Positions 9,288-53,362 of a DNA stretch of 64,000 nucleotides are shown here, piece by piece. A model generated the notes under the pieces. It searched no databases, was not told where the DNA came from, and saw only the letters and a program-made list of their open reading frames with translations. This DNA is from Promethearchaeota archaeon (lineage in GTDB: Archaea; Asgardarchaeota; Lokiarchaeia; Sigyniarchaeales; SOKP01), in NCBI GenBank assembly GCA_048938855.1, contig JBHLLT010000001.1, forward strand, positions 416,124-480,123, given 5' to 3'. The translations under genes and the position numbers were made by a program. Position 1 is the first letter of the stretch. Every line of letters begins with the position of its first letter.

Positions 9288-9722
9288 TTAACGAAGCGGT
9301 TTCTCTTTCTTCCCTGCTAAAAGAGCGTCCAGGCTTACGCCATTAACTTTTACTACTTTATAACGAACACCTGGGAGATCTCCAATAGAACGTCCTTTTG
9401 CTCCTCCAATTCCTTCCACAATCACTCTATCATGCTCTTCTATGAAATTTAGTGCTCCATCTCCTGGAAGGAATGCCGTTACACCTTTTCCATTCTTTTT
9501 CAATTGCACTCTTACACATTTTCTTATTGCTGAGTTTGGTTGTTTGCTCTCACGTCCAACTTTTTGAAGAACAATACCTAGCGCTTGGCACGATCCTTCT
9601 AAGGGATCTACTCTTTTTTTCAATTGAAGCTTTCTTCTTTTATATTTTGTTTTGGACCATCGAAACTTCTTTCGATTTGTTTGAAGCTTTCGAGCAGCAT
9701 AAAGTCCTTTTGGGCTACCTAT
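9288..9722 (-). CDS. rps12: 30S ribosomal protein uS12; probable ATA start at 9722 (GTG at 9731 is the alternative)
   Basis: [28 protein letters not shown]. Confidence 0.96.
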
Positions 9723-9813
9723 ATAAAACACCTTAATATATTATTTGATAGAACTTAAGTAGTAGAAAAAATGTTTCCTTAAACTTAAAATTTATGTATA
9801 GGTAGAGTTATTT

Positions 9814-10290
9814 TTAGATATTTTTAGTATTAATAATTACATTATCCACTTCAAAATATCTCAGAACTAGTTCTTTTATTTTTCTTATCATGGAGCCGTC
9901 TTTACCAATTGCTTTTCCACGATCTTGAGGTCTAACAGTTATAACAACAGTTTTCTTTAGGTTTCTATTTTCTTTGATTTCAATATTTTGAACCATTATT
10001 GTATTTTTTGTTGTTTGTAAGATATTTTGGATAAATTTATCTAACTTTTCTGAGAAAGCGATGACATCAATCTTCTTTTGGAGTTTAGATTTTAGGTCTT
10101 TAACATGTTCACCAGATTTTCCAATTGCTTTTCCAACATCTTCTTCTTTTACTAAAAAAATAATGATTTCAGAGCCATTTTCAGGAGATTTAAAGATAAG
10201 ACAATCTTTAATGATGGCACCAGAGATATTATTAAATAGGGAAATAAGTTCCATTGCTTCCCTGTCAATTTTTATATTTTTTTTTAACAT
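9814..10290 (-). CDS. nusA: Archaeal NusA (two KH domains)
   Basis: GKAIGKSG and GKAIGKDG; position between rpl30e and rps12. Confidence 0.93.
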   Translation of the reverse strand: MLKKNIKIDREAMELISLFNNISGAIIKDCLIFKSPENGSEIIIFLVKEEDVGKAIGKSGEHVKDLKSKLQKKIDVIAFSEKLDKFIQNILQTTKNTIMVQNIEIKENRNLKKTVVITVRPQDRGKAIGKDGSMIRKIKELVLRYFEVDNVIINTKNI

Positions 10291-10321
10291 GAAAAAATCA
10301 AGTCTCTACTGTTTGTTAATA

Positions 10322-10696: not shown

Positions 10697-10803
10697 GATA
10701 TATTCAAACAGTTTCTATATAATAAGTAATAAGAACAATACTTTTTTAATTTTTTTAGGCACACTTAAGTTATTTCGTCTTAATTAAAAGTTTTCGATTG
10801 ATT

Positions 10804-12003: not shown

Positions 12004-12033
12004 TTATATCTTCCTACACGTTCAAAAATTATT

Positions 12034-15861: not shown

Positions 15862-15870
15862 GTCTAATCA

Positions 15871-28235: not shown

Positions 28236-28544
28236 TTATTCTTTAACAGAAACAGAATTTAACCTAAGATGCTCCTTCCCAATTATTAGCGTTTTTTTAG
28301 AATTCCCCAATTTTACTTCTACTAAATAACAGCGTCCTCTCTGAGCAATGATAGTACCAGTACGCCCGTGGTATCTACTATTTGGCATTCCTCGCTTATG
28401 TTGAGAAGGATCAGTGATAACATCCACTTTATCTCCTTGATTATAGTCAATTAAATATTTCTCGATGGAGCCAAGCCCTCTATCTCGTACATTTTTCCTG
28501 TGTTTATGTCTTGTTTTCTTACGGTATCCACGATGCTTTACCAG
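28236..28544 (-). CDS. rpl21e: 50S ribosomal protein eL21; probable CTG start at 28544
   Basis: GYRKKTR, GDKV....DPS, GMP..RYHGRTG, EHL. Confidence 0.95.
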   Translation of the reverse strand: MVKHRGYRKKTRHKHRKNVRDRGLGSIEKYLIDYNQGDKVDVITDPSQHKRGMPNSRYHGRTGTIIAQRGRCYLVEVKLGNSKKTLIIGKEHLRLNSVSVKE

Positions 28545-28660
28545 TTTCAAGCACCTACACAATTTTCATAATTATAACTAATCAATTGATTTGGTAGAAT
28601 TATGTATTATAATTTATTTATTTTTTGATTTTGACTATATAAAATTGAATAAAATCAACA

Positions 28661-32953: not shown

Positions 32954-33032
32954 TTATTTTCCCACCTTATTAGAATAAAGATTGAATACTTTTTTTTAGG
33001 CTTTAAATTTATGTATAAATAGAAAGTCTATT

Positions 33033-33770
33033 TTAATATATTTTATCATCACTCTCTTTTAAAAAATTTAACAAATTCATCTGAGTTGAACCTGATTTTT
33101 CAATTTTATCAAAAGAATATCCTGATAATTGACTTATAAGTGTCTTCATTTTAAGGATTACATCTTCCGGAGTCAAATTTTCTGTGTCGATTGTAAAAAC
33201 TGATTCATTATTTGCTAAAAATTGCTTGTAAAATGAAATGATTCTTAATAGATATTCTCTATCATCCTCGTTCCATTCCTTTCTTATTTTTTCTAAGGAA
33301 CCTCTTTGGATAATCCTTTTCATAATTGTATTTGGTTCAGCGCTTAAATAGAATATGTAATTTTCTTTCCATTCTATTGATTTGTACGTGTCTAAAATAA
33401 GATTATAGTCCTTTTCTTTTAAATTCAAACTCTTAGAATAAATTAAAACACATAATGGAGTTCGATCTAAAATTATAATTCTACCATTATATTTATTATC
33501 GAAATTTACTACATTCTGATTGCGTCTAATAAGTTGTTGAAGAAAATGAAGTTCACTTCTAAATCCAATTTGTTTGTCAGATGAACCAAATGGGAAAGGA
33601 GGTTTTTTTACATATCTTTCAGGGAAAAATTTGAATTTGTTATTATCTTTCACCTTTTTATCTTTTTTAAATAGGTTGAATACAGTTGTTTTGCCAACCC
33701 CATGTACTCCAGCAATTGAGATTATGATATTATCCTTACTCCCTTTATTTCTATATAATTGTTTGCCCAA
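33033..33770 (-). CDS. Deoxynucleoside/thymidylate kinase family P-loop kinase with C-terminal PIP box
   Basis: IAGVHGVGKTT, ILDR, YL.A....I.KRI..RG; QMNLLNFL. Confidence 0.82.
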   Translation of the reverse strand: MGKQLYRNKGSKDNIIISIAGVHGVGKTTVFNLFKKDKKVKDNNKFKFFPERYVKKPPFPFGSSDKQIGFRSELHFLQQLIRRNQNVVNFDNKYNGRIIILDRTPLCVLIYSKSLNLKEKDYNLILDTYKSIEWKENYIFYLSAEPNTIMKRIIQRGSLEKIRKEWNEDDREYLLRIISFYKQFLANNESVFTIDTENLTPEDVILKMKTLISQLSGYSFDKIEKSGSTQMNLLNFLKESDDKIY

Positions 33771-33902
33771 ATTACTTACTCCAAACCTATTAGACTAAAT
33801 CATGTTAATAAAACTATGGTTAAAATAAAAAATAAATCTAGAGATTATTGATTTATTATATTTTATTAAATTTTATATTTAGGGGGTAATGATAAGGTTA
33901 AA

Positions 33903-34955
33903 TTAGAGAAGGATAAGAATAATCGAAATTATATTATTCAAGAGCCCAGCTATAATCGTATTATATAGATTTTGATTTATTTCATAAATAAATCCAAGCA
34001 AGATGTATGATAGGAAATAAAATAAAAAGAAGTAGATTCCAATTGGAAGTGTGAAAAACAACATAAGAAGTGAATAAACTGAAGCAACTATCAGAATTAC
34101 AATATAATTATTTTTAAATCTTTGTTTTAATGTATTGTGTAAAACCCCCCGAAAAGCAATTTCTGAAAAGGTTGTAACTCCACATAAAGATAATATTAGA
34201 AGTATATTCCAAAGTAATCCGGAATCTCTTATTACTTGATTATATGCTTCAATCCTAGGTGTAATATTAAAAACGTCTAAACCTAAATCTGATATGAAGC
34301 CAAAAAACTGATCAGAAAAGAAATTGAGTAATAATAACATCAGAGCTCCTAAAATACCGATTATTAATGCTAAAGGAATCTTTTTCGATTCAGAACGAAA
34401 TCCTAATTTGGTAAAACTATGCTTTTTGTTATAAATATACCATAGTGGATATATGCCAAATAACAATTCAGGAAGATAACTCAGTAATATTAGTTCAATA
34501 GTAGGAGTAGCTGATTCTGGTTGGAATAAAAATGTTGCTAATAAAAAATATACAATTATTAATATGTAAATACATGTACCAAAAACATTTAATCCCTCTT
34601 TTAAGTTCCAAGTATCCTTCCTTAGAATGAACTTCTGTTCAGGTTCAAGTTTTTTATTAGTAAAAATCAATCCAGGTTTTTTTTGAACAATACCCTTTCT
34701 AATTTCAGAAATTTTCTCTAATTTAGCATTACATATTGGACATTGATCCAAGACTGTTGATGTTATTATAGACTTACAATTTGGACAAGTTCTTGAAACT
34801 CCTTTTTCTGAAATAGGGTGAGGTTCTGGAATATTCTTCCCAGGTGCAATCTTAATAATTAGTTTACCGCAATTCGGACAATATGTCTTACTTTCTGTTA
34901 CATCTGCCCCACAGAAAACACAATACTTAATTTTTTTCTGGTTTCCTTTTGACAT
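33903..34955 (-). CDS. Double zinc ribbon + degenerate CPBP membrane domain protein
   Basis: CVFC/CPNC/CPNC/CPIC; SEIAFRG replaces EExxFRG and both His motifs are lost. Confidence 0.8.
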   Translation of the reverse strand: MSKGNQKKIKYCVFCGADVTESKTYCPNCGKLIIKIAPGKNIPEPHPISEKGVSRTCPNCKSIITSTVLDQCPICNAKLEKISEIRKGIVQKKPGLIFTNKKLEPEQKFILRKDTWNLKEGLNVFGTCIYILIIVYFLLATFLFQPESATPTIELILLSYLPELLFGIYPLWYIYNKKHSFTKLGFRSESKKIPLALIIGILGALMLLLLNFFSDQFFGFISDLGLDVFNITPRIEAYNQVIRDSGLLWNILLILSLCGVTTFSEIAFRGVLHNTLKQRFKNNYIVILIVASVYSLLMLFFTLPIGIYFFLFYFLSYILLGFIYEINQNLYNTIIAGLLNNIISIILILL

Positions 34956-35079
34956 TGCTCTTATTCTACTCTAAATCTAGATTATAATGTTATTTTGTAA
35001 ATTATATAAACTAGAAATTATATAATTTTTGTTTACATTTTATTCATTTAATCGGATATTACATTCAATTGATTTTATC

Positions 35080-35466
35080 ATGCTTAAAAAATTTTTCAAA
35101 AGAAGAATTAATGAGATACATCAAAAATATAAGGATAAAAAACTTCTGCTTGTAGATGATATCTCTAACTTTTTTGGATTAGAATCATCAGGAGTTTTGA
35201 AGGTTCGGGGGAATGGGGTTTTATTACTTACAGAAGAAGAATTATTTTTTGGAATGTGGAAACCTAAAATAGACTTAGTAATTTCTATTAAATCTATTAT
35301 TGAGGTTTTAAATCCAAAATCCCATATGCATAGATCGATGTTTCAACCTTTATTGAAGGTAGTTTTTACTAATGATAATGGTGTAGTCGATTCAGCTGCT
35401 TGGTATGTACGAAAATTAGATGATTGGAATAAAGCCTTTAATAAATTAATTCTGAAAGATAGATAA
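35080..35466 (+). CDS. Hypothetical protein, possibly PH/GRAM-like fold
   Basis: GVLLLTEEELFF...ISIKSI.EV pattern with terminal W-containing helix. Confidence 0.6.
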   Translation: MLKKFFKRRINEIHQKYKDKKLLLVDDISNFFGLESSGVLKVRGNGVLLLTEEELFFGMWKPKIDLVISIKSIIEVLNPKSHMHRSMFQPLLKVVFTNDNGVVDSAAWYVRKLDDWNKAFNKLILKDR

Positions 35467-35469
35467 CAA

Positions 35470-36717
35470 TTAATTATCATTTTGCTGCTTTGCATTCTTT
35501 TTTGCAATATTTGCTACTTCCATTAGTAAAAGTCCATGATAATAAGAAATAGAATCAAAAAACCCTTCTCCTAAATCTGATTTACCTGCATGAATTAATG
35601 CCATTTGAGCGTTTAAAGCTGCTCTCATTAAAATTTCAACTCCTTTGTAAATTAAATTTGGAGACCAAGTTTTATTGTATGGATTGGACCACCAGGTGGG
35701 ACAAGAGTAAATTCCACGATTGTAATAATATCTAGCAGTGTTGTAGTAGTTTTCAATTTCCCAATCTTTTGTAAGGTCTATCGTATCTGCTATACTCATA
35801 AGATTATTCAAACTTCTCATCAGTTTCCAATAAAATTTATGAACACTGTTATCAGGGTGATCCCAGAGGGGGTATGGAATTCCTGCTTTTAAATCTTCAT
35901 AAGTTGTACTCCAACTTGATTCTCGTGGAATAATTTTTTTCTTAGCTAAGGGAAAATGGAGATCCAAGTCGGATATAAAAATTGTCTTTAGATTTTTATG
36001 TTGGCCTATTAATTCTAGAACTGTACCTAAGAAAGTTCTATGATAATTTTTTATATGGTGCCCAAAAGTTTCTCCATCTAAGGCAGTTAAAATATAAGTT
36101 GAGTTATCTTTTTCTTTGTTTTTATGAACTGATTTAATATCACTTACAAATTTTTTTGGAGAAATATCCTTAAAAGCTATTTTATTGCTTAATATGTCAT
36201 CCCTAAAGAATAATTGAAGTCCATTTGGAGAGGTGAAGATTTTATCGTATGGCCATTCTACAGGACATGCAATTCCGCTCATTATAACCCATTTATAGCC
36301 TAGCTGACGAAGAAATTTCGCAATACTTCCTGAAATTGCCAATTCTGGTGGAAAGAAACCTTTTCTTTCCCATTGTCCGAATTCTTTCGTATTTATTTCT
36401 TCATTCATTTGAATTTGATGTAAAGCTTCTTTTTCAGGGATTAAAGGGAGGATTGGATGGAACTTTGCCGTTCCAACTATTTCAATTTTGTTTTCAGATA
36501 CTAAATTTTTCAGTAAATCCATTGTGTCAGACAAACCAAATTCATAAAATAACTCAATAAGGATCCCATTAATATTAAGAGAAAATTTTGCATTATCAAA
36601 TTCTTCTAGCAATGAAAACAGTGGCTTGTAACATTCTTTGTCTATAGTTCTTAGAACTTTAGGATCCTGTGTTGGGGGTTGATAAATGTGAAGTAAAGGT
36701 GCCCAATAAGTTATCAA
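35470..36717 (-). CDS. Glycoside hydrolase family 57 protein
   Basis: HIYQP, HPILPL, GFFPPELA, LDGETFGHH, SSW. Confidence 0.93.
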   Translation of the reverse strand: MITYWAPLLHIYQPPTQDPKVLRTIDKECYKPLFSLLEEFDNAKFSLNINGILIELFYEFGLSDTMDLLKNLVSENKIEIVGTAKFHPILPLIPEKEALHQIQMNEEINTKEFGQWERKGFFPPELAISGSIAKFLRQLGYKWVIMSGIACPVEWPYDKIFTSPNGLQLFFRDDILSNKIAFKDISPKKFVSDIKSVHKNKEKDNSTYILTALDGETFGHHIKNYHRTFLGTVLELIGQHKNLKTIFISDLDLHFPLAKKKIIPRESSWSTTYEDLKAGIPYPLWDHPDNSVHKFYWKLMRSLNNLMSIADTIDLTKDWEIENYYNTARYYYNRGIYSCPTWWSNPYNKTWSPNLIYKGVEILMRAALNAQMALIHAGKSDLGEGFFDSISYYHGLLLMEVANIAKKNAKQQNDN

Positions 36718-36788
36718 TTAAATTCCATCCATTTTTTTCATTTTTTACTTTAAATTTTAAAATAAATAATATTCCCATAATTTAAATT

Positions 36789-37904
36789 CTACTTTTCTAT
36801 TATGGTTTCTTTTATAAAGGTACCAAAATGTGTTGCTCCAGATCCAAGGTGGACAAGAATATTATCTCCAATTTTTATATCAACAACAGTTCTAGCTTTA
36901 CCATCAACTCCAATTAGTCGAACTGTTTCGGCATTTTGGCATATGCAACTTAATTGAATTTTTTTATCTTGGTCTATAGCTTCCAGTTCAAATCTAAGCA
37001 TTGGACGTGTTTCTACTTTTATTCTTCCTATAAATACAATTCTAGCATCTCCTTCAGAATTTACTGCTAAAATCTTATCTCCTCCTTTTAATTCACTCAG
37101 ATACTTTGTTCGATAAGTTTTATTTGGATCATCATCAGGTACTAAGATATAAGCTGAAACATCACCAGCATTAACACGAAATGGTCTGGGAGAAATAAAT
37201 TGATTTTTAAGTGTCTCAGAATGAATCAAACAAAACCCTTTTGCCGTTGAACCAACTAGTAATCCCTCTCCTTCATTTAGAAGTGATGTAGTGTCCACAC
37301 ACACTCTTTCACTTTCAGTTATAGTTTGAATTTTCTTAACTGTTGCATTAGTTAATTCTAAATGATATTTTAAGTTTAGGAGATTTTTCAATTCAATAAT
37401 TTCAGCGATACTTTTTGGTTTGATCATGATTCCATCAACACCAATTTCAAGTGTCTTTAGCATAGTCTCTGCTTCTTTTATGGTTTTAACTGAAGCTATT
37501 AGTTCAGTATCGTATGTATGTAATTCAGCTATAAGATTTTCGATAGGAATTATTTTCCAGTTACTTGTGGAGACAATAATAAGATCCACATTTCTACTTC
37601 TTGCTATTTCAATAATTTCTTTTTCGTCTTCTTTAGTTTTTAATTCAAAGAGAACTCCGAGACTTTTATTCTCTTGCTTTTGAAGAATTAAATTGTCCAT
37701 TAATTTTTCTTTATATTCATATATTAAGTATTTAGTAGGAATAAGAGTATTTTTGGAATATAGATTAAACCTCTTAAATTTCTCAAATTCTTTAAAAGTC
37801 TCCTGAGATACAAAAAAATTAAAAAAATTTCTATTTATAGCTTCTTGGACTAGATCCTTAAAAATTTCATTTTTGGATTCAAAATCTAGAATGACTTTTT
37901 TCAT
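36789..37904 (-). CDS. 3-dehydroquinate synthase type II
   Basis: WKIIPIENLIA, RVCVDT, RPFRVNAG, QNAETVRL, HFG..I.E.IIEK. Confidence 0.95.
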   Translation of the reverse strand: MKKVILDFESKNEIFKDLVQEAINRNFFNFFVSQETFKEFEKFKRFNLYSKNTLIPTKYLIYEYKEKLMDNLILQKQENKSLGVLFELKTKEDEKEIIEIARSRNVDLIIVSTSNWKIIPIENLIAELHTYDTELIASVKTIKEAETMLKTLEIGVDGIMIKPKSIAEIIELKNLLNLKYHLELTNATVKKIQTITESERVCVDTTSLLNEGEGLLVGSTAKGFCLIHSETLKNQFISPRPFRVNAGDVSAYILVPDDDPNKTYRTKYLSELKGGDKILAVNSEGDARIVFIGRIKVETRPMLRFELEAIDQDKKIQLSCICQNAETVRLIGVDGKARTVVDIKIGDNILVHLGSGATHFGTFIKETIIEK

Positions 37905-38056
37905 AGTGCTTAAATATTGGTCTATACTAAACTTTTTTGATGAGAATTATTTTATAATATTATACTAAATAATATTAAATTTTTAAGTCTAAAAAATTAT
38001 TTAACATATATAATCAGATAATATAAAATTAAAGTTCTAAATGGTGTATTGATAAA

Positions 38057-38707
38057 ATGGGGTTAAAAAAGAAACTATTTCCACGTAAAAGTAAAGAAAA
38101 AGACGACTTAGTAGCAAAAGCTAAAGGTCATATTCATAGATTGAATATGATGAACAAGAATTATAATAAAAGAGCAGAAATAAGCAGAAAAAACGCAAAG
38201 ATTGCTTTAAAGCGGGGTGAAAAGGATCGTGCAAAAACTTATTTAGTACAATATAAGGCATATCAAATGAAAGTTGACCGTAGTAACAATATCCGATTAA
38301 AGATTGAGAGACAGATTCAAGCAATTGAAGAAGGAATGCTTATATCACAAACAGGTGATGTAATGGGGGGGATTAGAGATGAATTAGAATATATAGCAAC
38401 AAAAGCATCCCCTACAAAAGTTGCTGAGATAGCTGAAGATTCTGAAGCATATGTTGCAGAAATCGAAGAAGCAGCCGACATTTTAGGTGGTGATCCAGAA
38501 ATTGATCTTGCAATTGATGTTACTGATGAATTAAACCAACTTGAAACGGAAATGCTCCTAGAACAAGGGGGAACTATGCCTGAAATTCCTGCTGATGATC
38601 TACAATATATACCTGAATATGATCTTGAAGAAGAGGAAGCTGAACTCAAATCGAAAGATCAACTAAAAGACGAGATCGATAAACTTAGAAAAGAATTGGA
38701 AGGATAA
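38057..38707 (+). CDS. ESCRT-III protein, Snf7/Vps20/32/60 group
   Basis: Basic N-terminal hairpin AK.ALKRG.K.RAK.YL, QIQAIE, acidic C-half with DELNQLE, terminal amphipathic helix. Confidence 0.85.
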   Translation: MGLKKKLFPRKSKEKDDLVAKAKGHIHRLNMMNKNYNKRAEISRKNAKIALKRGEKDRAKTYLVQYKAYQMKVDRSNNIRLKIERQIQAIEEGMLISQTGDVMGGIRDELEYIATKASPTKVAEIAEDSEAYVAEIEEAADILGGDPEIDLAIDVTDELNQLETEMLLEQGGTMPEIPADDLQYIPEYDLEEEEAELKSKDQLKDEIDKLRKELEG

Positions 38708-38767
38708 CTCATTTTAACGTAAATTTCTTTTACTTTTTGGAATTAATCCTAATCATTTTAATAATGA

Positions 38768-39787
38768 CTACTTTAATTCTTTCAAAGCAAGAACCATATT
38801 TTTTACTTTATTGATTGCAATTTCATATCCATCTTTTTCTCCAAAAACTTTTAAAGGAAGGAAACCACAATCTGGTTTAATAATTAGATTCTCTCTTCCA
38901 TACAAATCGATGCCCTTTTTGATGAATTTTTTGATAGAATCAATTTTTTCTACATAATCTTCAATTTTCTTATTCAATATTGGTGTAAATTTAGATTCAA
39001 CAGTTCCCATTGCTAATAATTTATCTGTTCCTTGGAAATGTTTTTTCTCATATATCTTAAAATTTTCCTGATTTGTGGTAAATTCATGATCTAAAATATT
39101 TACATTTGTTTTTAAGAGAAGGTCTCGTAGATAAGGACTAATTCTTCCACAAACATGTATTGAGGATAATCCTTTTATTCCAGATATAGCTTTATTAATA
39201 GTTTTAATGATAAAATCCTCTGTATGAAATAAAATCCTCTTCCCTATTAATAATCCTAGTACAGGTTCATCACATGAAATAATGTCTATATTCATTTCAC
39301 TATAAGCAGTTGCTATTTGCTTAATTACTTGAGCAAACGTATCAACAATCCAATCTACCATTACTGCTCTTGGTTCTTCGAAAATTATTGGTTTTAAACC
39401 TTTAGCAATATCATTTTTTAGTATTGTTTCGAATGCTAAGGTGAAGGGTCCGGTTATGCAAGCTTTTGTACCTTGTATAGAACTCTTTAGTTCTGGACGT
39501 TCAGTAAAATAATTGGTAATAAATTTTCCATATTCAAGGGCAATAGGTTCCTTAGGTTTATTAAATTCACCTGATAGATAAAATTTATCATCAATTTCTT
39601 CTAATTGAGGGACAATCTTTGATAATGGAGACAAAAATTGATAGGTCATGGATAAAAGTTGAGGGTAACAAGGGTAATCAATGCCAATTTGAATTAAATC
39701 ATCAAAAACCTTTAGCATATTGTTTAAAGTATTTTCTAAAGGCCAGCTTCCAACTAAAGTTGTAAATAATCCTTCCTTCTTATCCAT
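38768..39787 (-). CDS. Single-barrel (core) methionine synthase, MetE catalytic domain
   Basis: VGSWP, KACITGPFTL, DEP, IHVCG, HEF, PDCG. Confidence 0.85.
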   Translation of the reverse strand: MDKKEGLFTTLVGSWPLENTLNNMLKVFDDLIQIGIDYPCYPQLLSMTYQFLSPLSKIVPQLEEIDDKFYLSGEFNKPKEPIALEYGKFITNYFTERPELKSSIQGTKACITGPFTLAFETILKNDIAKGLKPIIFEEPRAVMVDWIVDTFAQVIKQIATAYSEMNIDIISCDEPVLGLLIGKRILFHTEDFIIKTINKAISGIKGLSSIHVCGRISPYLRDLLLKTNVNILDHEFTTNQENFKIYEKKHFQGTDKLLAMGTVESKFTPILNKKIEDYVEKIDSIKKFIKKGIDLYGRENLIIKPDCGFLPLKVFGEKDGYEIAINKVKNMVLALKELK

Positions 39788-39865
39788 ATGATATATTATT
39801 ATGACAAAAATATAAATTTAGAATAAAAAATAATGTAAATTTTGCATAAAGCTTGAAACAAAATT

Positions 39866-41827
39866 CTAACTATAAAAGCGCCTTTTATCAAAATTCCTAC
39901 TGTTTTTTTTTAGAGAGTCAATCTCTTCCAAATTTTCTTGTAAATCACCAATTTTTTTTTCAATTAAATAGATTTCTTTTTGAAGGTTTTTAAAAGTTTT
40001 AAAATAATCTACTTCAGAAATTATTCCTTGATCGAATTTATTGTCGAGTTTTTTCAACGTTTCTTTTAAACTATATCGTTCTTTATCTAATTCGAGCATT
40101 TTTTTATGTTTTTCTTTATCAATTTTAAACAACTTCCGTTTATATCTATAAGAATTATCTCGTGGAATATAATCCGAATCAAACAAGTCAGTTAAATGAT
40201 TCCTATTATAATCTTGAAACACAGCTTGGTTATCTAGGAAATTACCATCTTTCTCATTAAAATCTTCTATAAATTGGTTCTGATAATGTGGATTTAAGTT
40301 ATTATTAACATTTATTCTTTGGGCTCCATAATTTTGATACTGATTTGGATTTTGTAGGTTTTGAGAGAAGAAATTATTGTCATTATGATTTGGCATTTGA
40401 GAATTAAAGTTAAAGGGAGGATTTTGGTTAGGATTAGGACGATCATGGGAGACTCTATTAATTCGCTGATATATATTCGAAGCTCCCGGAAAATTTAGCC
40501 ATGGTTGAGCACTATTTTGGGGATTTTGAAACTGAGCAGGTGTTCGAGATGCAATGTTTGCTATTTGGTTGGGATGAACACCAAAAGGATAAGTTAAGTC
40601 TTTATTTGGACTATAAAAATTTTCAAAGTTTTTATTATATTGACATTTTATACTAAAAAATGAGTTAATACTCTCTTCAATGAAATTTGTTAAATCATTT
40701 AAATCTAATTCAATATATTGTAGTTTTTTTGCTGATTTTTCATCATATATAGTAGTCTCATCGAAAGATCTTGCCAAAAGGATATATTCAATCACTCGTG
40801 AAACCGCCTTAGAGGGTAATGTAAATTCATATTTCCCATAGTCGAATTCAATATAAAGCTTTTTGAAGACTTTACCTTTTTCTTTAATTCTTGTTAAATC
40901 TTGAACAGGAGCTTTAAAAATTAATTCGATTTTATTTTTCTTTACACCATATTTATGTATAAATGAAAGATCAAAATTTGTTATGAATAAGATACCTTTA
41001 TCTTTCTTGTATTTGTCATGCGTATTTAATCCATTTGTCAATTTAGCATAAATTGCATATACAGGTTTTTCCCCCTCAGCAAGGTGAAGTATTTTATTGT
41101 AACTTTCAAAGTAATGTTTAACTTTATCTATAAAACTTAAATTTTTTTCAAATGTATCAAAACCATCATTAAATGTTTCTAAATTATTTTTTATAAATTC
41201 ATCAATTAAATTGAAACTACGGGATAAATTTTCAAAAAGCCCCTCAATGATATTTATATTTGAGTTTGGTTGGGCATAAATATCAAAAAAATATTCTTTA
41301 TTTTGATTTACTTGATGAAATTGAACATTAACCTTTTCAAATAAAGTATTTTGAAGATAATTAAATAATTTAAAAAATGCTAATAAATCTGATTCCATTT
41401 GGGGAAAATGGTAATATTTATTAGGAGGATCTCTCACTTCCTTTATTTTAGATTGATAAAGATACAATTTATCAAGAATTTGTTTCAATGGATCGATGAA
41501 TGAGCGTGTTTTTTTAATTAATTCTAAGAAATTCTTTTCTAAATCTTCTTTTTTTTCATAGATATTTATAATTTGATGTGAATCACATTTTGGACAGGAT
41601 TTTAAGCGCTGATTGACTTTAACAACATTTTCTGCTCCACATTCCTTACAAACTTTCTTACTTTCAGAATTTAGCATATCTATATTTTTCGATTTGCACA
41701 CTTGACAAATATAGAAATCCACTTTTTTTTCATGAAGACATTCCGGACAACAACTGGATCCACATTCTTCACAATAATAAGCTAACTTCACATATCTGTG
41801 ACAAAATCTACATACTTGTTCTGTCAT
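39866..41827 (-). CDS. Multi-zinc-finger / coiled-coil / PH-like / Q-N-rich protein of unknown function
   Basis: Six CxxC in the first 90 aa; GILFITNFDLSFI PH-like segment; N/Q/P-rich tract; terminal coiled coil. Confidence 0.8.
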   Translation of the reverse strand: MTEQVCRFCHRYVKLAYYCEECGSSCCPECLHEKKVDFYICQVCKSKNIDMLNSESKKVCKECGAENVVKVNQRLKSCPKCDSHQIINIYEKKEDLEKNFLELIKKTRSFIDPLKQILDKLYLYQSKIKEVRDPPNKYYHFPQMESDLLAFFKLFNYLQNTLFEKVNVQFHQVNQNKEYFFDIYAQPNSNINIIEGLFENLSRSFNLIDEFIKNNLETFNDGFDTFEKNLSFIDKVKHYFESYNKILHLAEGEKPVYAIYAKLTNGLNTHDKYKKDKGILFITNFDLSFIHKYGVKKNKIELIFKAPVQDLTRIKEKGKVFKKLYIEFDYGKYEFTLPSKAVSRVIEYILLARSFDETTIYDEKSAKKLQYIELDLNDLTNFIEESINSFFSIKCQYNKNFENFYSPNKDLTYPFGVHPNQIANIASRTPAQFQNPQNSAQPWLNFPGASNIYQRINRVSHDRPNPNQNPPFNFNSQMPNHNDNNFFSQNLQNPNQYQNYGAQRINVNNNLNPHYQNQFIEDFNEKDGNFLDNQAVFQDYNRNHLTDLFDSDYIPRDNSYRYKRKLFKIDKEKHKKMLELDKERYSLKETLKKLDNKFDQGIISEVDYFKTFKNLQKEIYLIEKKIGDLQENLEEIDSLKKNSRNFDKRRFYS

Positions 41828-41850
41828 GTTAATGCTAAAACCCAACCAAA

Positions 41851-41869
41851 AAAGGTAAAATTTACCTTT
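41851..41869. promoter_or_regulatory. Palindrome AAAGGTAAA-A-TTTACCTTT, candidate operator
   Basis: Perfect 9-1-9 inverted repeat just upstream of the ATG at 41827. Confidence 0.45.
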
Positions 41870-41986
41870 AAAATCGTTATATCAGAAGAATAAGAAATTC
41901 CAAAACATAAAAAAAGTTATAATATTCTAGTATCATGTAATATCCGGATATAATAAAGTGGAGAAATTTATAGAAAAATAAGGATG

Positions 41987-45503: not shown

Positions 45504-47291
45504 TTGAATGAAAAAAAAGATAATGTTTGGGTATTTACTTTTGAATACGCGGGAATTGTTAAAGTAGGTGGGCTTGGAGAAGTACCTGCAAATCAAGTTA
45601 AACATTTAGCTAATGATTATGATATCACAGTATTTATTCCCTCACATGGTCTATTACAAAAGCTTGAAAAGTCTTTTAAGTGGGAAAAATTACCTTTCAA
45701 CTGCGTAGGGCAAGTTAATTCTTCTCAATTTGGAATAAATGAACCAGAAATGACATATAATATTGCTTTCTATAGAACTATAATAAATAATGTAAAAGTC
45801 GTTTTATTACACGGTGAAAATCCATTTACTAATAGGTTTTTAGATGATATAATTGTATATAACCCTGATACACTTAGTGGAAAAATCTGTCTTTTTAGTA
45901 TAGGAATGTGTTGTTATATTGAGTATTTAATTGATGAACATAAAGAATTTCTACCAGATATAATTCATATCCACGATTATCATGCTGTTATTCCTTTTAT
46001 TGGAATGAAACAAAAATTAGCTAAAAATGGATTAGATGTAGCTTCAATTATAACAATCCATTTATTAACTTGGCCAAGACATGGGATAGATTTTTATAGA
46101 ATATGTGGAATAGACCAGACTTCAATTTCAGTTAATCTAAAAGAGGGTATTAAATTGTTAAGCTTTTCTGAGATATTTTCAATTTGCGAGAGAATTAGCG
46201 GGGTGTATCAACCCCCAACTATAGAACAAATAGGTGCATTTGTCAGTGATTTAGTCACAACTGTAAGTCAATCATATTTAAAATCAGATATAATTCCTAA
46301 TTGTGGAAATGAGTTAATCGAATTCAAGTCTAATTTTGTTTGGGATGGTTGTGATTGGGATTATAATGAAATTTTACAACAAGTTCTAAAAAACCATGAA
46401 CAGGATATAAGAAAAGCCTTACAATTATCATATGATAAAGAACTAATCCAATCAGATATGAAGGAATATTTATTGACTTATAAATTATCTCATTTAGATA
46501 GGAGTCCCTTAATTCAATCAGAAAAAGTTCTAAAGGTTATAAATGAAATATCCAATGAGACTGTTTTCATTGAAAATGGATATATTAAAGCTTTTGAACA
46601 ATCTGGTCCTTTAGTAATTACCACTGGAAGAATATCCCCACAAAAAGGATTTGAGACTGTTTTTGAGTCAATTCCTAAAGTGATCAAAGTGATTCCAAAT
46701 GCGAAATTTTTATTCCTCATTTTGCCTACTGATTATAGTTTGAATGAAATTCGTAATTATACTCAATATGTTAAAAAATATCCTAATAATGTGAGAATTA
46801 TTTTTGGTGTAGCAAAAGATATATTTCATTTAGCACATATTGCTTCAGATGTTTATTGTGCTTTATCGAGATGGGAACCATTTGGTATTATTGCTTTAGA
46901 AGCTATGTCTACAAAACTTCCTGTGATTGCAACAAAGGTAGGAGGATTTCAAGAATCGATTATTGATATTAGAAATTTTCCAGAAATAGGGACAGGAATT
47001 CTAATTGATAAAGATAATCCCTCTCAATTTGCTAATGCACTAATATCTCTTTTTAAATTAAAGGAGATCTCTGAGAACGTTAAAGATAAGGATTCTATAT
47101 ATGAAACTGAAAATTTTCAGTTGGTTAATCAGATTCCCGATAAAATACTTGAATCTTTGGTATTATTAGATCCTCAATTTTTCAATAAAATTAAAGAGAA
47201 TTGTTATAAAAGGGTGGAACAAAATTTTAGATGGAGTATTGTCTCAAAGAAATTAATTGAATTATATAATCTTATAAAAAGTCTTCGTTAA
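45504..47291 (+). CDS. glgA: Glycogen synthase (GT5)
   Basis: KVGGLG, HIHDYH, TVS..Y, GR...QKG, SRWEPFG...LEAM. Confidence 0.9.
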   Translation: MNEKKDNVWVFTFEYAGIVKVGGLGEVPANQVKHLANDYDITVFIPSHGLLQKLEKSFKWEKLPFNCVGQVNSSQFGINEPEMTYNIAFYRTIINNVKVVLLHGENPFTNRFLDDIIVYNPDTLSGKICLFSIGMCCYIEYLIDEHKEFLPDIIHIHDYHAVIPFIGMKQKLAKNGLDVASIITIHLLTWPRHGIDFYRICGIDQTSISVNLKEGIKLLSFSEIFSICERISGVYQPPTIEQIGAFVSDLVTTVSQSYLKSDIIPNCGNELIEFKSNFVWDGCDWDYNEILQQVLKNHEQDIRKALQLSYDKELIQSDMKEYLLTYKLSHLDRSPLIQSEKVLKVINEISNETVFIENGYIKAFEQSGPLVITTGRISPQKGFETVFESIPKVIKVIPNAKFLFLILPTDYSLNEIRNYTQYVKKYPNNVRIIFGVAKDIFHLAHIASDVYCALSRWEPFGIIALEAMSTKLPVIATKVGGFQESIIDIRNFPEIGTGILIDKDNPSQFANALISLFKLKEISENVKDKDSIYETENFQLVNQIPDKILESLVLLDPQFFNKIKENCYKRVEQNFRWSIVSKKLIELYNLIKSLR

Positions 47292-47315
47292 TTTAAAGAA
47301 ATAGGGGTCTAAATT

Positions 47316-48500
47316 CTGATTATATCAAAAAAGTCTGTAATTTTTATTTTAGTATCAGTTTTTATTTTAAATACAGCTACTATCATAGTTTATACATATG
47401 TACCAGCATATATTATCAATTTGGGAGTAAATAACTCTTCAATGCAATTAATTATTACGATTTTTCCCTTGACTGCTTTTGTATTTCCTCCATTGTATGG
47501 TTATCTATCTGATAAAATTCAAAAGAGATTTATATTCATAGTAATTGGAACAATTGGATTAAATATTACTCTTCTTATTTTATTTTTATTTCGAAATCTT
47601 ATCTTATTGGTTATTTTACTATTCTTTTTTGGATTTTTTCTGGCTTCATCAAGCTTATTACTAACTTTATTTGCTGAACTCGTAGAGAATGATAAAAAAC
47701 TAATTTCTTATTATAACGCAATAGTTGTGGCGGGTTGGTTTGTTGGAGCTCAATCTGGCGGTATATTTATTCATCTCTACAATATTGAGAATATTTTTTT
47801 ATTTATTTTGATTCTTTCATTACCAGCCATTATTTCCGTTGCTTTCATAAAAGAAAAAAGGTCTTTAATAATAGAAAGATACAACAACAAAAAAGACCAA
47901 GATATTAATAGTTTAATTTTTAATAATCCTAATATTGAAAATCCAATTTCTCAATCAATTTATTATAGCTTGTTTTTTAGGAATTTTAGTATAAAACCAA
48001 TTATGCCAATACTTATGTTAATTATGAGACCCCATTTAAACAATGATACAACAGCAGTTGGGTTTTTGATAGGGATAAATTTCTTATTACAATTTTTTCA
48101 AACTTTATTAATAGGCCATATAATTTCTATTAAAAATATTAAGCAATTTATGATAATTGGTTATGCATTAAGTGCTATATCTATTTTTGGATATATTATC
48201 TCAAATAATTTCTGGAGTTATTTATTTTTTCAATTATTGGTTTCTTTTAGTTATTCTACACATTGGACAGCCACTACTATATATATTGCCCAAAACACAA
48301 ATCCAAAAAACAAAGGGCGATATGTGGGATATGCTAACACTAGTGTGGCTTCCGGGAGTTTTTTTGGAGGTTTATTTTTCAGTCTCTTGTTGACTATTAA
48401 TCAAGATTTTTATATTTCTATGTATTTTTTACTCATATTTCCTATAATTTCTACAATTATTATTTTACTTAAATTTAAAGTTCCAGAAAAAATCAGGTAA
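47316..48500 (+). CDS. MFS transporter; start extended to CTG at 47316
   Basis: GYLSDK motif A; N-terminus (M)IISKKSVIFILVSVF aligns with the adjacent paralogue. Confidence 0.88.
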   Translation: MIISKKSVIFILVSVFILNTATIIVYTYVPAYIINLGVNNSSMQLIITIFPLTAFVFPPLYGYLSDKIQKRFIFIVIGTIGLNITLLILFLFRNLILLVILLFFFGFFLASSSLLLTLFAELVENDKKLISYYNAIVVAGWFVGAQSGGIFIHLYNIENIFLFILILSLPAIISVAFIKEKRSLIIERYNNKKDQDINSLIFNNPNIENPISQSIYYSLFFRNFSIKPIMPILMLIMRPHLNNDTTAVGFLIGINFLLQFFQTLLIGHIISIKNIKQFMIIGYALSAISIFGYIISNNFWSYLFFQLLVSFSYSTHWTATTIYIAQNTNPKNKGRYVGYANTSVASGSFFGGLFFSLLLTINQDFYISMYFLLIFPIISTIIILLKFKVPEKIR

Positions 48501-48684
48501 CATTCCAAAAATCGAATAAGTTCTAGAGTCTTTAAGCATTATTAGATTCAAACTATTATAATAAAGTCAAAGAAAATTGCTATAAAAGAGTTGAAAATAA
48601 TTTTAGATGGAGCATTGTTTCTAAGAAATTAATCTAGTTATTATTAAAAATCTTCGAAAATCAAATTTATAAGGAGTTAATTAT

Positions 48685-49887
48685 TTGATAATCTCTAAAA
48701 AATCTGTTTTTTTTATTTTAATCTCTGTTTTCTTTATTTATATTTCCATTATGCTTTTAATAACATTTTTACCTTTGTATCTTGAATTTTTAGATATAGA
48801 ACCAGCAGGTATAACATTATCAATGACCATTATTATGTTCACCTTATTCATTTTTCCCCCATTGTTAGGAAAATTCTCAGATAAAATTCAGAACAGAATT
48901 TATTTTATCTATCTGTTCCCAGTTGGTATTGTTTTTTCTTTAATTTTACTTATTTTTACTAAAGATATAATATTACTAAATATCATTTTATTTATGTTTG
49001 GGTTCTTTATTTCATTTTTAACTGTATATCTTACTCTTTTTAGTGAATTGGTTCAAAATGATAAAAAATGGGTATCGTATTATAATGCAACCTGCTCAAT
49101 TGGAAATTTTATGGGAGTTCTAATTGGAGGTATGTTGATCTTTCTTTTTACAATTGGGAATATTTTCATCTTTACCTTAGCTTCTTTCTTAATAGCTATA
49201 GTTTTTATTGTATTCATTAGAGAAGATAGAAATTTAATATTAGAATCTAATAAAAAAGAATACTCGAATTTTAAAAATGGAAAATTAAACAATCTCTTCA
49301 ATGAAGAACGTAAAATTTCGAATTCTATATACTATAGTCTTTTTTTTAGGAGTTTTGCAATAGTTCCAATCTTAAATGTTCTTGTAAGTATCTTGAGTCC
49401 TCATATAGCTACTACTAGCATTGCTTTTTTAGTTGGTTTAAACCCTCTACTACAATTTTTCTTTATAATTATCATTGGAATCATATTAAATGAAAAAAAC
49501 ATAAAGATATTTCTGATTTTAGGTTATCTATTATCTACTATTATTATAATCGGCTATATTATCTCTTTTGATTTTTGGAGTGTTTTTATTGTTCAAATAA
49601 TGCTCGCTAGTGGTTTTTCAATGTTTTGGATGGCAACAATTGTTTACATAGCTCAAAATTCAAATCCTACTAATAAAGGTCGCTTTATAGGATATGCCAC
49701 GACTAGCACTTATGCTGGCACAACATCAGGTGGACTCTTTTTTAGCTTATTATTAACTGTTTTCCAAGGTAATTATGATCTATCAATGGTCTTTATGATA
49801 TTATTTCCAGCAATCTCAACTATGATAATAATCTTCTTATTCAAAATACCACAAAATAAGTCACATAGTAGCCCAAAAAGCGTATAA
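48685..49887 (+). CDS. MFS transporter, tandem paralogue
   Basis: GKFSDK, YIAQN..P.NKGR..GY; TTG start behind AGGAG. Confidence 0.9.
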   Translation: MIISKKSVFFILISVFFIYISIMLLITFLPLYLEFLDIEPAGITLSMTIIMFTLFIFPPLLGKFSDKIQNRIYFIYLFPVGIVFSLILLIFTKDIILLNIILFMFGFFISFLTVYLTLFSELVQNDKKWVSYYNATCSIGNFMGVLIGGMLIFLFTIGNIFIFTLASFLIAIVFIVFIREDRNLILESNKKEYSNFKNGKLNNLFNEERKISNSIYYSLFFRSFAIVPILNVLVSILSPHIATTSIAFLVGLNPLLQFFFIIIIGIILNEKNIKIFLILGYLLSTIIIIGYIISFDFWSVFIVQIMLASGFSMFWMATIVYIAQNSNPTNKGRFIGYATTSTYAGTTSGGLFFSLLLTVFQGNYDLSMVFMILFPAISTMIIIFLFKIPQNKSHSSPKSV

Positions 49888-51828
49888 GTTATGAAGAATT
49901 GCATTTGGTTTATCTGGTAATATTTCTAATTCTTTTCTTATCCAATCTGAAATCCATTTATATTTTACTTTAAATCTACTATCCATAAAAATTATTGCCC
50001 CTTTATCAGAAACTTTTCTGATAGGTCTTCCGGAAGCTTGATTTGCTCGTTGTACTGCGGGATATAAGTAAGCAAAGTTCCAACCTTGTCTATTAAATAC
50101 TTTATCATAGTAGTTAATTTTTGCTTCCACTCTAGGAGTTGGTAAATGATAGGGAAATCCGGCAATTATTACAGAATTCATATAATCTCCAGGATAGTCC
50201 TCTCCTTCAGAATTCCTCCCTCCACATACGCCTAATAAGACACCGCCTCCATTTTTAGCCATAGTTTTGAAACCATCCACCAATAAAGAATTTTCAGATG
50301 CTGATAATCCTGATTCTTCAATGAATAGTTTTTTCCTATTCTTTTCTACAATATTCTCAAATCCATTTTTTAACAATCCTTTAAGAATTGTATAGGAGGC
50401 ACAAAAAACTCCGATATTTGCTGGAGTACTTTGGAGCACTTCATCAACTTTTTCTATTATTTTTTTATACATAGTTGGATTTCTACTATCTCTTTTAGTA
50501 TCTACGCCCTCAGTTATAATAGCTTTAATATTTTTATTATTAAATGGTGAATCTGCAACAATTCCTTTATAACTCTTGCCACATTCATTTAATCCCATCA
50601 AATTATTGTACACATATGGATTTACCGTTCCAGAGAGATTTAAACATGTATATCCATTTTTTAAAATAGGAATTGTAACTTCTCTTGGATCTAAGGCAAC
50701 GATTTCAAGTGATATTAACCTCTTTCCCTTATTTTCCTTTGTATTATAACAAAAGAAGTAATTTTCTGATGTATAAGATTCTAACCACTTCAACCAAAAT
50801 TCTGCTAATGAACTAATAAAATCTCTTGAGATTTCTCCATTTGCCACTTTTTCTTCATGAACAGATAAGCTAAAATCATAAAGTTCATCAATAAAGATCT
50901 TAAATCCATTTAGATCAGAAAATCCTAATTTTTTATATATCGATGTTAAGTATCTATCTGGTTCTATGGCTTTTTCATTAACTCGTAGATTCTTTTTCTC
51001 TGTTTGTAATTGATCTAATAATATTTGTACGAAACTTTGCATTAAAATAGGTGATCTATACATTTCAAGATCTTTTAAGCATATTTTTAATGAATATGGG
51101 GTAATCTTTTTTGAATTAATTTCAGTTGCAATATCAATTATATTATGACATTCATCTAACACAAGAATACAATTTTGGAGTTCTTGACCTATAAATTCTA
51201 AAAAAGATTCACGAATATACGGATTAAAAATCCATTGATAATTGCAAATTATTACTCTCATTCCTTCAAGTAAAAATTTACTTAAGAAATAGGGACAGAA
51301 ATTATGTTCCTTACAGAATCCTATTAATTCTTCAGCGTCAATAGGTTTATTAAATAATTCTGGTGCGATTGATAAAGGATTTTCACTTTGTCCTTTCTTT
51401 TTTAATAAATTTAGAAAGTAAAGACAATTCCGGTTTTTTCTTAGATCGGTGCAAACAGACATTGCTTCTCTTGGATTTAACTTGAGAGATAATAATGTTT
51501 TATTTAGGCACATTTCATTCCTACCTCTTATTGAAAGACCATTTAAGTTGACTTTAAAATTGTCAGTAATTGTTTTTTGTGAAATTTTAGTCAATTCCTT
51601 AATTATTCTACGATTTTGAGAATGGGTCCTGCACATATAAATTATTTTTAGATTTTTCTCAAATGCTAAAGGAAGTAAACCACATAATGCAATAATTGTT
51701 TTACCTGTACCATTAGGAGCTGATAATAAAGTAATCTTCTTTAATCTAGAACTTTCTTCAATTTGACTAATGACTTTTTCTTGATTTTCTCTGAAATTCT
51801 CGTAAGGGAAAAAGGATGAATAATTTAT
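49861..51828 (-). CDS. xpd: XPD/Rad3 Fe-S DNA helicase; start extended to ATA at 51828
   Basis: FPYENFRENQ (Q motif), APNGTGKT, Fe-S cysteines, DECHN, SGT, SEGED, QASGRPIR. Confidence 0.92.
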   Translation of the reverse strand: MNYSSFFPYENFRENQEKVISQIEESSRLKKITLLSAPNGTGKTIIALCGLLPLAFEKNLKIIYMCRTHSQNRRIIKELTKISQKTITDNFKVNLNGLSIRGRNEMCLNKTLLSLKLNPREAMSVCTDLRKNRNCLYFLNLLKKKGQSENPLSIAPELFNKPIDAEELIGFCKEHNFCPYFLSKFLLEGMRVIICNYQWIFNPYIRESFLEFIGQELQNCILVLDECHNIIDIATEINSKKITPYSLKICLKDLEMYRSPILMQSFVQILLDQLQTEKKNLRVNEKAIEPDRYLTSIYKKLGFSDLNGFKIFIDELYDFSLSVHEEKVANGEISRDFISSLAEFWLKWLESYTSENYFFCYNTKENKGKRLISLEIVALDPREVTIPILKNGYTCLNLSGTVNPYVYNNLMGLNECGKSYKGIVADSPFNNKNIKAIITEGVDTKRDSRNPTMYKKIIEKVDEVLQSTPANIGVFCASYTILKGLLKNGFENIVEKNRKKLFIEESGLSASENSLLVDGFKTMAKNGGGVLLGVCGGRNSEGEDYPGDYMNSVIIAGFPYHLPTPRVEAKINYYDKVFNRQGWNFAYLYPAVQRANQASGRPIRKVSDKGAIIFMDSRFKVKYKWISDWIRKELEILPDKPNAILHNLYAFWATM

Positions 51829-51916
51829 TTTAGCACACCATAAATTAAAATATAATTTTTATACTTCAATAGAATTTATATTGCTATAGACTTTATAAAT
51901 TTAAAAATTTATAGTG

Positions 51917-53362
51917 TTAATCATGTAATATAGGGTTTCTTGCCGCTTGAACAGCATCTAATCGCTTAACATATGTATTATGAGGAGCAGTTTTAAGTAT
52001 TTCAGGACTAATTCTTGCTTCTTCATAAATTTTATTCATTATTTTAACAAAGTTATCTAAGGATTTTTTCGATTCAGTTTCAGTAGGTTCAATCATCAAT
52101 GCTCCTGAAACAATCAATGGAAAATAGATCGTGGGCGCATAAACTCCATAATCAAGTATACGTTTACCTATATCTTCAGTTGTAATTTCATTAGGCATAT
52201 TTCGATCAGAAAGTACAAACTCATGTTGGCAGATCCGGTTAAAAGGAAGAAAAAAATTCTTTTGTAAGAGAACTCTTAAATAATTTGCATTTAAAACAGC
52301 TATTTGGCCAACTCTTTTTAAACCTTCAGCTCCTAAAGCTAAAATATAAGCGTATGCTCTAATAATAACGCCAAAATTACCCCAAAAGGCTCGTATTCTT
52401 CCAATTGATTTATAATTGTTTTCTTTACATATAATTCCGTTTTGAGTTGAAATTAAGCAAGGTTCTGGAAGAAATGGAACGAGCTCATCTATAACTCCAA
52501 TAGGTCCTGATCCTGGACCACCGCCACCATGTGGAGTAGAGAAAGTTTTATGCAAATTCAAATGTATAATATCAAAACCCATGTCTCTAGGATGACAAAT
52601 TCCCAACATTGGATTTAAGTTTGCTCCATCATAATAACATAATCCACCACTTTCATGAACAATTTTAGTGATTTCCTTAATTTGTCTATCAAATACTCCT
52701 AATGTATTCGGATTGGTTAGCATTATACCGGCAACATCACCTTCTTTCATGGCAAATTCTAACTTATCTAATGGAACTTCTCCATATTTATTTGATTGTA
52801 TTTCTATTATTGAGAATCCCGCCATCCTAGCAGAGGCCGGATTAGTTCCATGAGCAGAATCAGGAACAATAATTTTATTCTTTTTAATGCCTTTACTCTC
52901 AAAATATTTTTTTATCATTAATAAGCCAACTAGTTCTCCATGAGCTCCTGCTGCCGGTTGCATTGTAAATCCATCCATTCCTGTTATTTCACCTAATAAT
53001 TCGGAGATATGATAGAGTAATGCAAGACACCCACTATTTTTCTCTTGTAAAGGATGGATTTGAGCAAAACTTGGCATTCTGACTATCTTTTCATTTATTT
53101 TAGGATTATACTTCATGGTACAAGAACCTAATGGATATATACCTGTATCTACACCATAATTCCGATTACTTAAATTAATAAAATGACGAACTATTTCAAC
53201 TTCTGGAATATTAGGAATTGGTAAATCTATTCTTTGGTAAGATTTTGGTAAAATTTCATTAATATCAGTTCCATCAATGTCCATTTCAGGAACAAAATTA
53301 TTCGATTTACTATCTATTTCCTTTTCAAAAATTAATTGAATGTTAGAATCTATGATTTTCAC
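51917..53362 (-). CDS. gcvPB: Glycine dehydrogenase subunit 2
   Basis: YPLGSCTMKYNP, SAHGTNPAS, HLNLHKTFSTPHGGGGPG, EPTETES. Confidence 0.97.
   Translation of the reverse strand: MKIIDSNIQLIFEKEIDSKSNNFVPEMDIDGTDINEILPKSYQRIDLPIPNIPEVEIVRHFINLSNRNYGVDTGIYPLGSCTMKYNPKINEKIVRMPSFAQIHPLQEKNSGCLALLYHISELLGEITGMDGFTMQPAAGAHGELVGLLMIKKYFESKGIKKNKIIVPDSAHGTNPASARMAGFSIIEIQSNKYGEVPLDKLEFAMKEGDVAGIMLTNPNTLGVFDRQIKEITKIVHESGGLCYYDGANLNPMLGICHPRDMGFDIIHLNLHKTFSTPHGGGGPGSGPIGVIDELVPFLPEPCLISTQNGIICKENNYKSIGRIRAFWGNFGVIIRAYAYILALGAEGLKRVGQIAVLNANYLRVLLQKNFFLPFNRICQHEFVLSDRNMPNEITTEDIGKRILDYGVYAPTIYFPLIVSGALMIEPTETESKKSLDNFVKIMNKIYEEARISPEILKTAPHNTYVKRLDAVQAARNPILHD

Follow-up and report, generated by a model that had tools for sequence, protein, structure and literature searches.

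Probable near-cognate start codons behind Shine-Dalgarno sequences in a genome of the Lokiarchaeia

Probable near-cognate starts in the window

The window, a stretch of 64,000 nucleotides (nt) on contig C34 (C34:416124-480123) of a Promethearchaeota archaeon assembly (3.95 Mb, 30% GC, 97% complete, 7% contaminated), contains 60 genes of 90 or more codons, five of which appear to begin at a near-cognate codon, i.e., one mismatch from ATG. These genes encode the ribosomal proteins uS12 and eL21, the first of two MFS transporters, the XPD/Rad3 helicase, and gcvPB (Table 1). An earlier note on this DNA had described the first four as ATA/CTG cases lying 6-7 nt after a G-rich Shine-Dalgarno (SD) sequence among about 60 genes, with gcvPB as a weaker fifth; the sequence and the gene count bear this out, and the orthologs of gcvPB support its inclusion. 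All five are internal cistrons, and the gap to the preceding gene is 24-117 nt for four of them.

Table 1. Start codons and associated SD sequences in the window
Feature	Position	Strand	Remarks
uS12 start, ATA	9720-9722	-	gene 9288-9722
uS12 SD, AAGGTG	9729-9734	-	6 nt before ATA; contains an in-frame GTG, a rival start
eL21 start, CTG	28542-28544	-	gene 28236-28544
eL21 SD, AGGTG	28552-28556	-	7 nt before CTG
First MFS transporter start, CTG	47316-47318	+	gene 47316-48500
First MFS SD-like sequence, AGGGGT	47303-47308	+	7 nt before CTG
XPD/Rad3 helicase start, ATA	51826-51828	-	gene 49861-51828
XPD SD, TGGTG	51836-51840	-	7 nt before ATA
gcvPB start, ATA	53351-53353	-	gene 51917-53353; GTG in same column in both orthologs
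gcvPB SD, GAGGTG	53362-53367	-	8 nt before ATA; overlapping in-frame GTG is a rival start
Roadblock TTG start	32951-32953	-	ordinary; ATG in both orthologs
Kinase TTG start	33768-33770	-	ordinary; TTG in all three genomes
GH57 TTG start	36715-36717	-	ordinary; orthologs ATG and TTG
glgA TTG start	45504-45506	+	ordinary; TTG in all three genomes
Second MFS TTG start	48685-48687	+	ordinary; agrees with orthologs
gcvPA TTG start	54694-54696	-	ordinary; TTG in all three genomes

Near-cognate codons occupy the position of the homologous methionine and are conserved across related species. Below, the host family is labelled f1, the host genus g1, and other families of the same order f2-f4. Across 24 genomes of the genus, the uS12 start column reads ATA in 14, GTG in six, TTG in three and ATG in one, and the sole gene starting at ATG is without an SD. 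The residues encoded by the uS12 spacer vary freely while ATA stays fixed. Two f2 genomes have ATT, and in one of these a stop codon stands between the GTG of the SD and the ATT. In contigs from other studies that span the uS12 start, 0-10 letters differ, and positions 9720-9722 are unchanged among the matches listed. For eL21, the column in 23 genus genomes holds ATA (10), ATC (5), ATT (4), CTG (2) and TTG (2) and no ATG, and several of these genes have a stop codon immediately 5′ of the SD; in other families the codon is ATG (4) or TTG (3). A second, weaker eL21-like match was seen on contig C39 (C39:6186-6461).

In XPD, 17 of 20 genus genomes have ATA, one has ATT and two have ATG, and in both of the latter the SD is changed or absent. 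The XPD frame offers no ATG, GTG or TTG before codon 74, and the Walker A motif lies upstream of the first ATG. The first MFS gene has an in-frame stop two codons 5′ of its CTG and the next TTG only at codon 36; the MFS_1 profile match begins at residue 12 of the CTG-started protein, and the CTG column is TTG in the ortholog and in the adjoining paralog. By parsimony on the XPD tree, the start codon has switched at least nine times in uS12, at least 11 times in eL21 and at least three times in XPD. The frames of the near-cognate-start genes are intact in more than 20 genomes, and sequencing or assembly error is excluded as the source of the window cases because their start codons are conserved in 20-24 genomes. 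Two paralogies were also recorded: a second XPD/Rad3 gene, 51% identical, lies at C49:333889-335790, and window positions 47313-49887 hold a tandem MFS pair with matching N-termini, of which one member starts at CTG and the other at TTG.

Genome-wide signal and lineage distribution

An effect specific to the window was considered and rejected, the pattern being genome-wide; against a genome rate of about 5%, five of 60 genes is no significant excess (Poisson P about 0.19). The genome-wide signal was measured in two ways. In a register test over the 3293 open reading frames (ORFs) of the genome, the in-frame codon 6-7 nt after a GGTG near the coding onset (n = 263) was ATG in 53, ATT in 50, ATA in 32, TTG in 29, ATC in 8, GTG in 6, ACG in 3 and CTG in 2. 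ATH (ATA, ATT or ATC) was thus seen 90 times against 27 expected (p = 3e-25), which sets a floor of about 63 genes (1.9%). No ATH excess was found 8-11 nt after GGTG, nor at 6-7 nt behind GAGG, GGAG or the decoys GCTG, GATG and GGTA; weaker excesses accompanied GTGA and, when the spacing was shorter, GAGG and GGGT. After background correction, enrichment at the GGTG register was 5.4-fold for ACG, 4.2-fold for ATA, 3.1-fold for ATT, 2.4-fold for CTG and 2.2-fold for ATC, from small counts.

In the second approach, a mixture model left all 64 codons free as starts and split genes into SD-led and no-SD classes. For SD-led genes, it returned ATG and seven one-mismatch codons: ATG 611, TTG 179, ATT 83, ATA 54, GTG 40, ATC 14, CTG 13 and ACG 8. 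On this estimate ATT, ATA, ATC, CTG or ACG would start about 170 genes, which is 5% of the genome's genes and 16% of the SD-led ones, with ATH accounting for about 150 of 171; ATT is the commonest of them and the third commonest SD-led start, ahead of GTG. The estimated share of genes with near-cognate starts is about 5%, within a range of 2-6%. These starts lie 6-7 nt from the SD, whereas ATG alone is spread over 5-11 nt. The no-SD class takes in about 67% of genes; its starts are ATG or TTG, and its top codons include neither ATT nor ATA. Where the SD decays ATG returns, in uS12, in XPD and in ortholog pairs genome-wide. The suggestion in the earlier note that SD position mainly fixes initiation therefore applies to the near-cognate starts but not to the SD-less majority, and the weak discrimination it proposed amounts to tolerance of near-cognate codons only behind a GGTG/GTGA SD at one register.

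Coding sequence upstream of the first canonical codon points the same way. Of 317 ortholog pairs, about 10 reach their first ATG, GTG or TTG only after at least 23 conserved codons (a floor of 3%), and among 45 ORFs with 25 or more coding-like codons before theirs, 23 have an SD and a near-cognate codon at the onset, where chance would give 3.7%. In uS14, all 10 genus genomes compared have a close in-frame stop upstream and no ATG, GTG or TTG, while the column in other genera holds one of these three. Together with XPD, aIF1 (described below) and the first MFS gene, uS14 makes up the forced cases, for which no canonical alternative exists. About 76 kb before the window, the L7Ae gene (C34:340135, plus strand) reads TTA ATA ATT after an in-frame stop and behind GGAGA, a forced ATA/ATT start. 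Reassignment of AUA to methionine was rejected, since internal ATA aligns with isoleucine in 70% of cases and with methionine in 1.6%.

The archaeal comparison was with other Asgard archaea and Thermoproteota; for other Lokiarchaeial families, high-GC Asgard archaea and other f1 genera, it rests on an alignment test of ribosomal-operon genes. In that test, ATH occurred at GGTG plus 6-7 nt in 12 of 27 genes of the genus, 5 of 31 in the rest of the family, 0 of 26 in other Lokiarchaeial families, 1 of 174 in other Asgard archaea and 3 of 169 in Thermoproteota (background about 6%). The ATH share of SD-led starts under the mixture model was 0.166 in the host genome and 0.105 in 800 kb of two congeners, but only 0.006 among 393 genes of low-GC Asgard archaea and 0.000 among 392 from Thermoproteota. 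AT content alone is insufficient as an explanation, because family f7 (33-36% GC) shows no such starts. The tally and Asgard comparison that the earlier note had proposed thus show the ATH/CTG rate to exceed both that of the other sampled archaea and any error rate. Broad near-cognate usage looks derived within one family of Lokiarchaeia, and its rarity in the other Asgard families sampled argues against an ancestral condition leading towards eukaryotes; the bearing on the origin of eukaryotic start-site fidelity that the earlier note had seen is weakened accordingly, and any relevance to eukaryogenesis is indirect.

Some isolated candidates were seen in other lineages. The uS3/uS5 genes of Asgard families f15/f16 (L163, L164, L184) and f18 (L175) are without ATG, GTG or TTG before the conserved core, their candidate starts being CTG or ATC (one ATC, in f18). 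Seemingly forced matches in Thermoproteota were mostly rejected as artefacts of the core column, with ATG or TTG a few codons downstream; a few CTG candidates remain. Among relatives, eL32 (L126), uS3 (L125) and uS8 (L139/L141) show apparent frame breaks near the 5′ end, likely assembly errors.

Initiation machinery and competing explanations

The 16S rRNA tail carries a normal anti-SD, and the GGTG(A) SD is complementary to its CACC part. Genes for aIF1, two aIF1A and aIF2 alpha, beta and gamma are present, and among them only aIF1 is without a canonical start. The aIF1/SUI1 gene (C31:6300-6700, L093) begins at ATT behind two in-frame stops, and its frame has no ATG, GTG or TTG before the C-terminal part; the NCBI proteins begin at this ATT. 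In other Asgard families, aIF1 starts at ATA or CTG in 6 of 30 genes, belonging to three families (f6, f11 and f17), and a near-cognate aIF1 start is therefore more widely spread than genome-wide usage. One non-Asgard archaeon (L190/L233) probably starts aIF1 at CTG. The protein keeps its zinc knuckle and, by alignment, loop-1 residues matching R31, Y32 and K34 of P. abyssi; its strand 1 is less basic than in other Asgard archaea.

Elsewhere in the machinery, aIF2 gamma (C22, frame ending near 2210) is extended at its N-terminus by about 100 residues, which by eye resemble a helix-hairpin-helix domain; frames of 476-606 residues are typical of the order (some about 400), against 397-474 in other Asgard archaea. 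As a cause of the near-cognate starts the extension was rejected, being common to Lokiarchaeial families with 0 of 26 such starts and missing in some members of the genus. The aIF1A paralogs, at C13:35326 and C55:53711, reflect either duplication or contamination. An initiator tRNA was not found in the assembly by ARAGORN, Rfam or pattern searches, the only CAU tRNA found being of elongator type by its G1-C72 pair. Many tRNA genes have introns at non-canonical positions (D arm, anticodon stem, variable loop), and C49:41349-41436 encodes a tRNA with a UCA anticodon and a long variable arm, probably tRNA-Sec.

We consider it probable that the near-cognate codons are real starts, read as methionine by initiator tRNA with one mismatch for which the SD compensates. 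In the sequence, GGTG(A) stands 6-7 nt before the codon, where it can pair with the CACC of the anti-SD; this pairing would keep the codon in the P site until Met-tRNAi and aIF2 have passed aIF1 proofreading, and without it only ATG, TTG and GTG would be expected to work. Comparison between genomes shows a strong SD with a weak codon trading off against a weak SD with ATG, and the trade-off may serve to tune output, which would be lower from a near-cognate start than from AUG, by analogy with S. aureus. AT-biased mutation also supplies changes from ATG to ATA or ATT. In Sulfolobus, AUU is rejected by aIF1; the factor's own ATT start could therefore create an infC-like feedback loop that sets stringency, making it a first candidate for autoregulation of an archaeal aIF1; one family of Lokiarchaeia would then run this loop loosely enough for near-cognate starts in about 5% of its genes.

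Several points weigh against this explanation. Support for these starts comes from DNA alone, although the usage itself appears real on that evidence. In the host genome, uS12, eL21 and gcvPB have an in-frame GTG or TTG two to three codons upstream. Inside genes, GGTG+6/7+ATH sites show no depletion (1030 vs. 1043), a weak test in that even ATG gives only 268 vs. 304. The mixture model failed on the small control sets of other Lokiarchaeial families, high-GC Asgard archaea and other f1 genera and over-calls junk codons in its no-SD class, and the 12 of 27 ribosomal-operon genes in the genus come from two genes, uS14 and uL15, in genomes that are not independent. In vitro, Sulfolobus aIF1 rejects an AUU mRNA, and standard factors may thus not suffice (PMC4705826). 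By analogy, an efficiency of about 10% also seems low for ribosomal proteins.

The use of near-cognate starts by essential, abundant proteins is one point in favor of a rival account, in which fidelity is lowered generally by a changed initiation machine (weaker aIF1 binding, an altered aIF2, the second aIF1A, or an altered rRNA or initiator tRNA) and the SD gives position only. We hold this tentatively, as the less likely account, and it is compatible with SD compensation. The sharp lineage contrast at similar AT content, the loss of basic residues from aIF1 strand 1 relative to other Asgard archaea, the paired aIF1A genes and the extended aIF2 gamma all speak for it, but the proteins of the family are generally divergent, the aIF1 zinc knuckle and loop-1 residues are kept, the anti-SD is normal, and long aIF2 gamma does not track the trait. 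Near-cognate starts also need a strong SD, and genes without one do not have ATT or ATA among their top codons. The altered aIF1, aIF2 or initiator tRNA that the earlier note had suspected is hypothetical for this genome, and the key motifs of aIF1 are intact. More doubtful is a re-set fidelity, in which aIF1 would be held low by its own AUU start, perhaps with weaker binding, so that AUU, AUA, AUC, CUG and ACG would be routine, efficient starts in about one-sixth of SD-led genes, a ribosomal and information regulon following the aIF1 level. If this is true, the aIF1/aIF2 system, which eukaryotes share, would here have its first low-fidelity state in nature.

The predominance of ATH among the predicted starts could be accounted for by third-position wobble, in which AUA, AUU and AUC would be read at starts by an Ile-tRNA or, as in animal mitochondria, through modification of the initiator anticodon; the lack of an initiator tRNA gene in the assembly leaves room for this. 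Such wobble is improbable: ACG and CTG are as enriched as ATH (in small counts), CTG and TTG swap with ATH in the single eL21 column, the strict SD need fits weak pairing, and internal ATA is isoleucine. Translational coupling, in which re-initiation after an upstream stop escapes proofreading, would suit the internal position of all five window cistrons, but it is largely refuted by distances and retains little probability; SD+ATH candidates have an upstream stop within 20 nt in just 9% of cases, as against 32% for SD+ATG and 39% for SD+TTG, and four of the window gaps measure 24-117 nt. The slightest chance of all goes to artefact, whether sequencing errors, pseudogenes or a true start at the GTG of the SD or a nearby TTG. 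An in-frame GTG does lie inside the SD of 14 of 14 ATA-type uS12 genes, and gene callers pick TTG for eL21; set against this are the fixed ATA beside a variable uS12 spacer, the stop that splits GTG from ATT in one ortholog, and the intact frames, and artefact is already refuted for the forced cases. To our knowledge, no RNA editing can convert ATT, ATC and CTG all into AUG.

Gene calls and known systems

The TTG starts that the earlier note listed for the roadblock, kinase, GH57, glgA and second MFS genes agree with their orthologs but are ordinary, as TTG starts are for archaea (PMC7531240); for eL42, a TTG start at 4541 is more likely than one at 4550. Window positions 31973-41881 form a cluster with the roadblock protein, kinase and GH57 genes together with a gene judged ESCRT-III-like by eye (38033-38707).

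Gene calls are affected unevenly. Public callers start XPD at a late ATG, which removes the Walker A region, and choose an upstream TTG for eL21. The zinc knuckle is missing in 39 of 108 database aIF1 homologs, some of which may be contig-end pieces; NCBI records start aIF1 at ATT, and many other records are shorter. Truncated ab-initio calls, as the earlier note had expected, are thus common, though not universal. In each genome of this much-studied Asgard group, shortened or absent calls may concern some 100-170 proteins, with effects on domain and phylogenomic analyses.

Archaeal reviews name only AUG, GUG and UUG as starts (PMC7531240; PMC12993045), and a 2026 review of Asgard archaea says no more on the subject than that SDs are rare in Lokiarchaea (PMC12993045). 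In this genome, AUU, which aIF1 rejects in vitro, is predicted to be the third commonest SD-led start. The setting otherwise resembles known SD-led and leaderless initiation in archaea: same factors, a normal anti-SD, an SD in a minority of Lokiarchaeial genes, and frequent TTG (PMC7531240; PMC12993045). Near-cognate sites in H. volcanii appeared among alternative starts and were set aside as possible false positives (PMC7261190). In a literature search largely without subscription journals, neither usage near 5% nor a near-cognate aIF1 start was found for Asgard archaea.

Autoregulation by a disfavored start has precedents. In E. coli, infC has the AUU start against which its product discriminates (PMC4705826), and eIF1 is cited as likewise disfavoring the poor context of its own start (PMC6237735). 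The Sulfolobus complex without aIF1 binds an AUU mRNA (PMC4705826). The Lokiarchaeial case differs in that feedback is putative and that near-cognate aIF1 starts occur in three other Asgard families.

Routine use of ATH at starts, as AUA and AUU, is also a feature of mammalian mitochondria (PMC11775629). Mammalian mitochondrial mRNAs are leaderless, and AUA is methionine internally as well. The likeness stops at the codons, the starts described here being SD-dependent and internal ATA being isoleucine.

Closer parallels involve the SD. In prokaryotes, GUG and UUG starts are accompanied by stronger SDs (Belinky et al., PMC5622118); the same pairing of weaker codon with stronger SD is seen here, and the Lokiarchaeial case would extend compensation from those two codons to ATT, ATA, ATC, CTG and ACG. 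In S. aureus, AUA and AUU starts behind extended SDs give about 10% of AUG output, and infC, ccpN, cvfC1 and citZ share with the present genes a near-cognate codon rescued by a start-proximal SD at fixed spacing, conservation between species, and a fidelity factor among their number (PMC13009471). The S. aureus set comprises four genes in a bacterium with IF3, established by Ribo-Ret; the Lokiarchaeial set would comprise about 170 genes under archaeal aIF1/aIF2, with ribosomal proteins included and codons switching freely. Such genes offer natural pairs of mRNA and factor in which SD pairing can be tested against aIF1/aIF2 proofreading. A few bacterial genes already exemplify the mechanism, and its probable use in about 5% of an archaeal genome appears to be new in extent.

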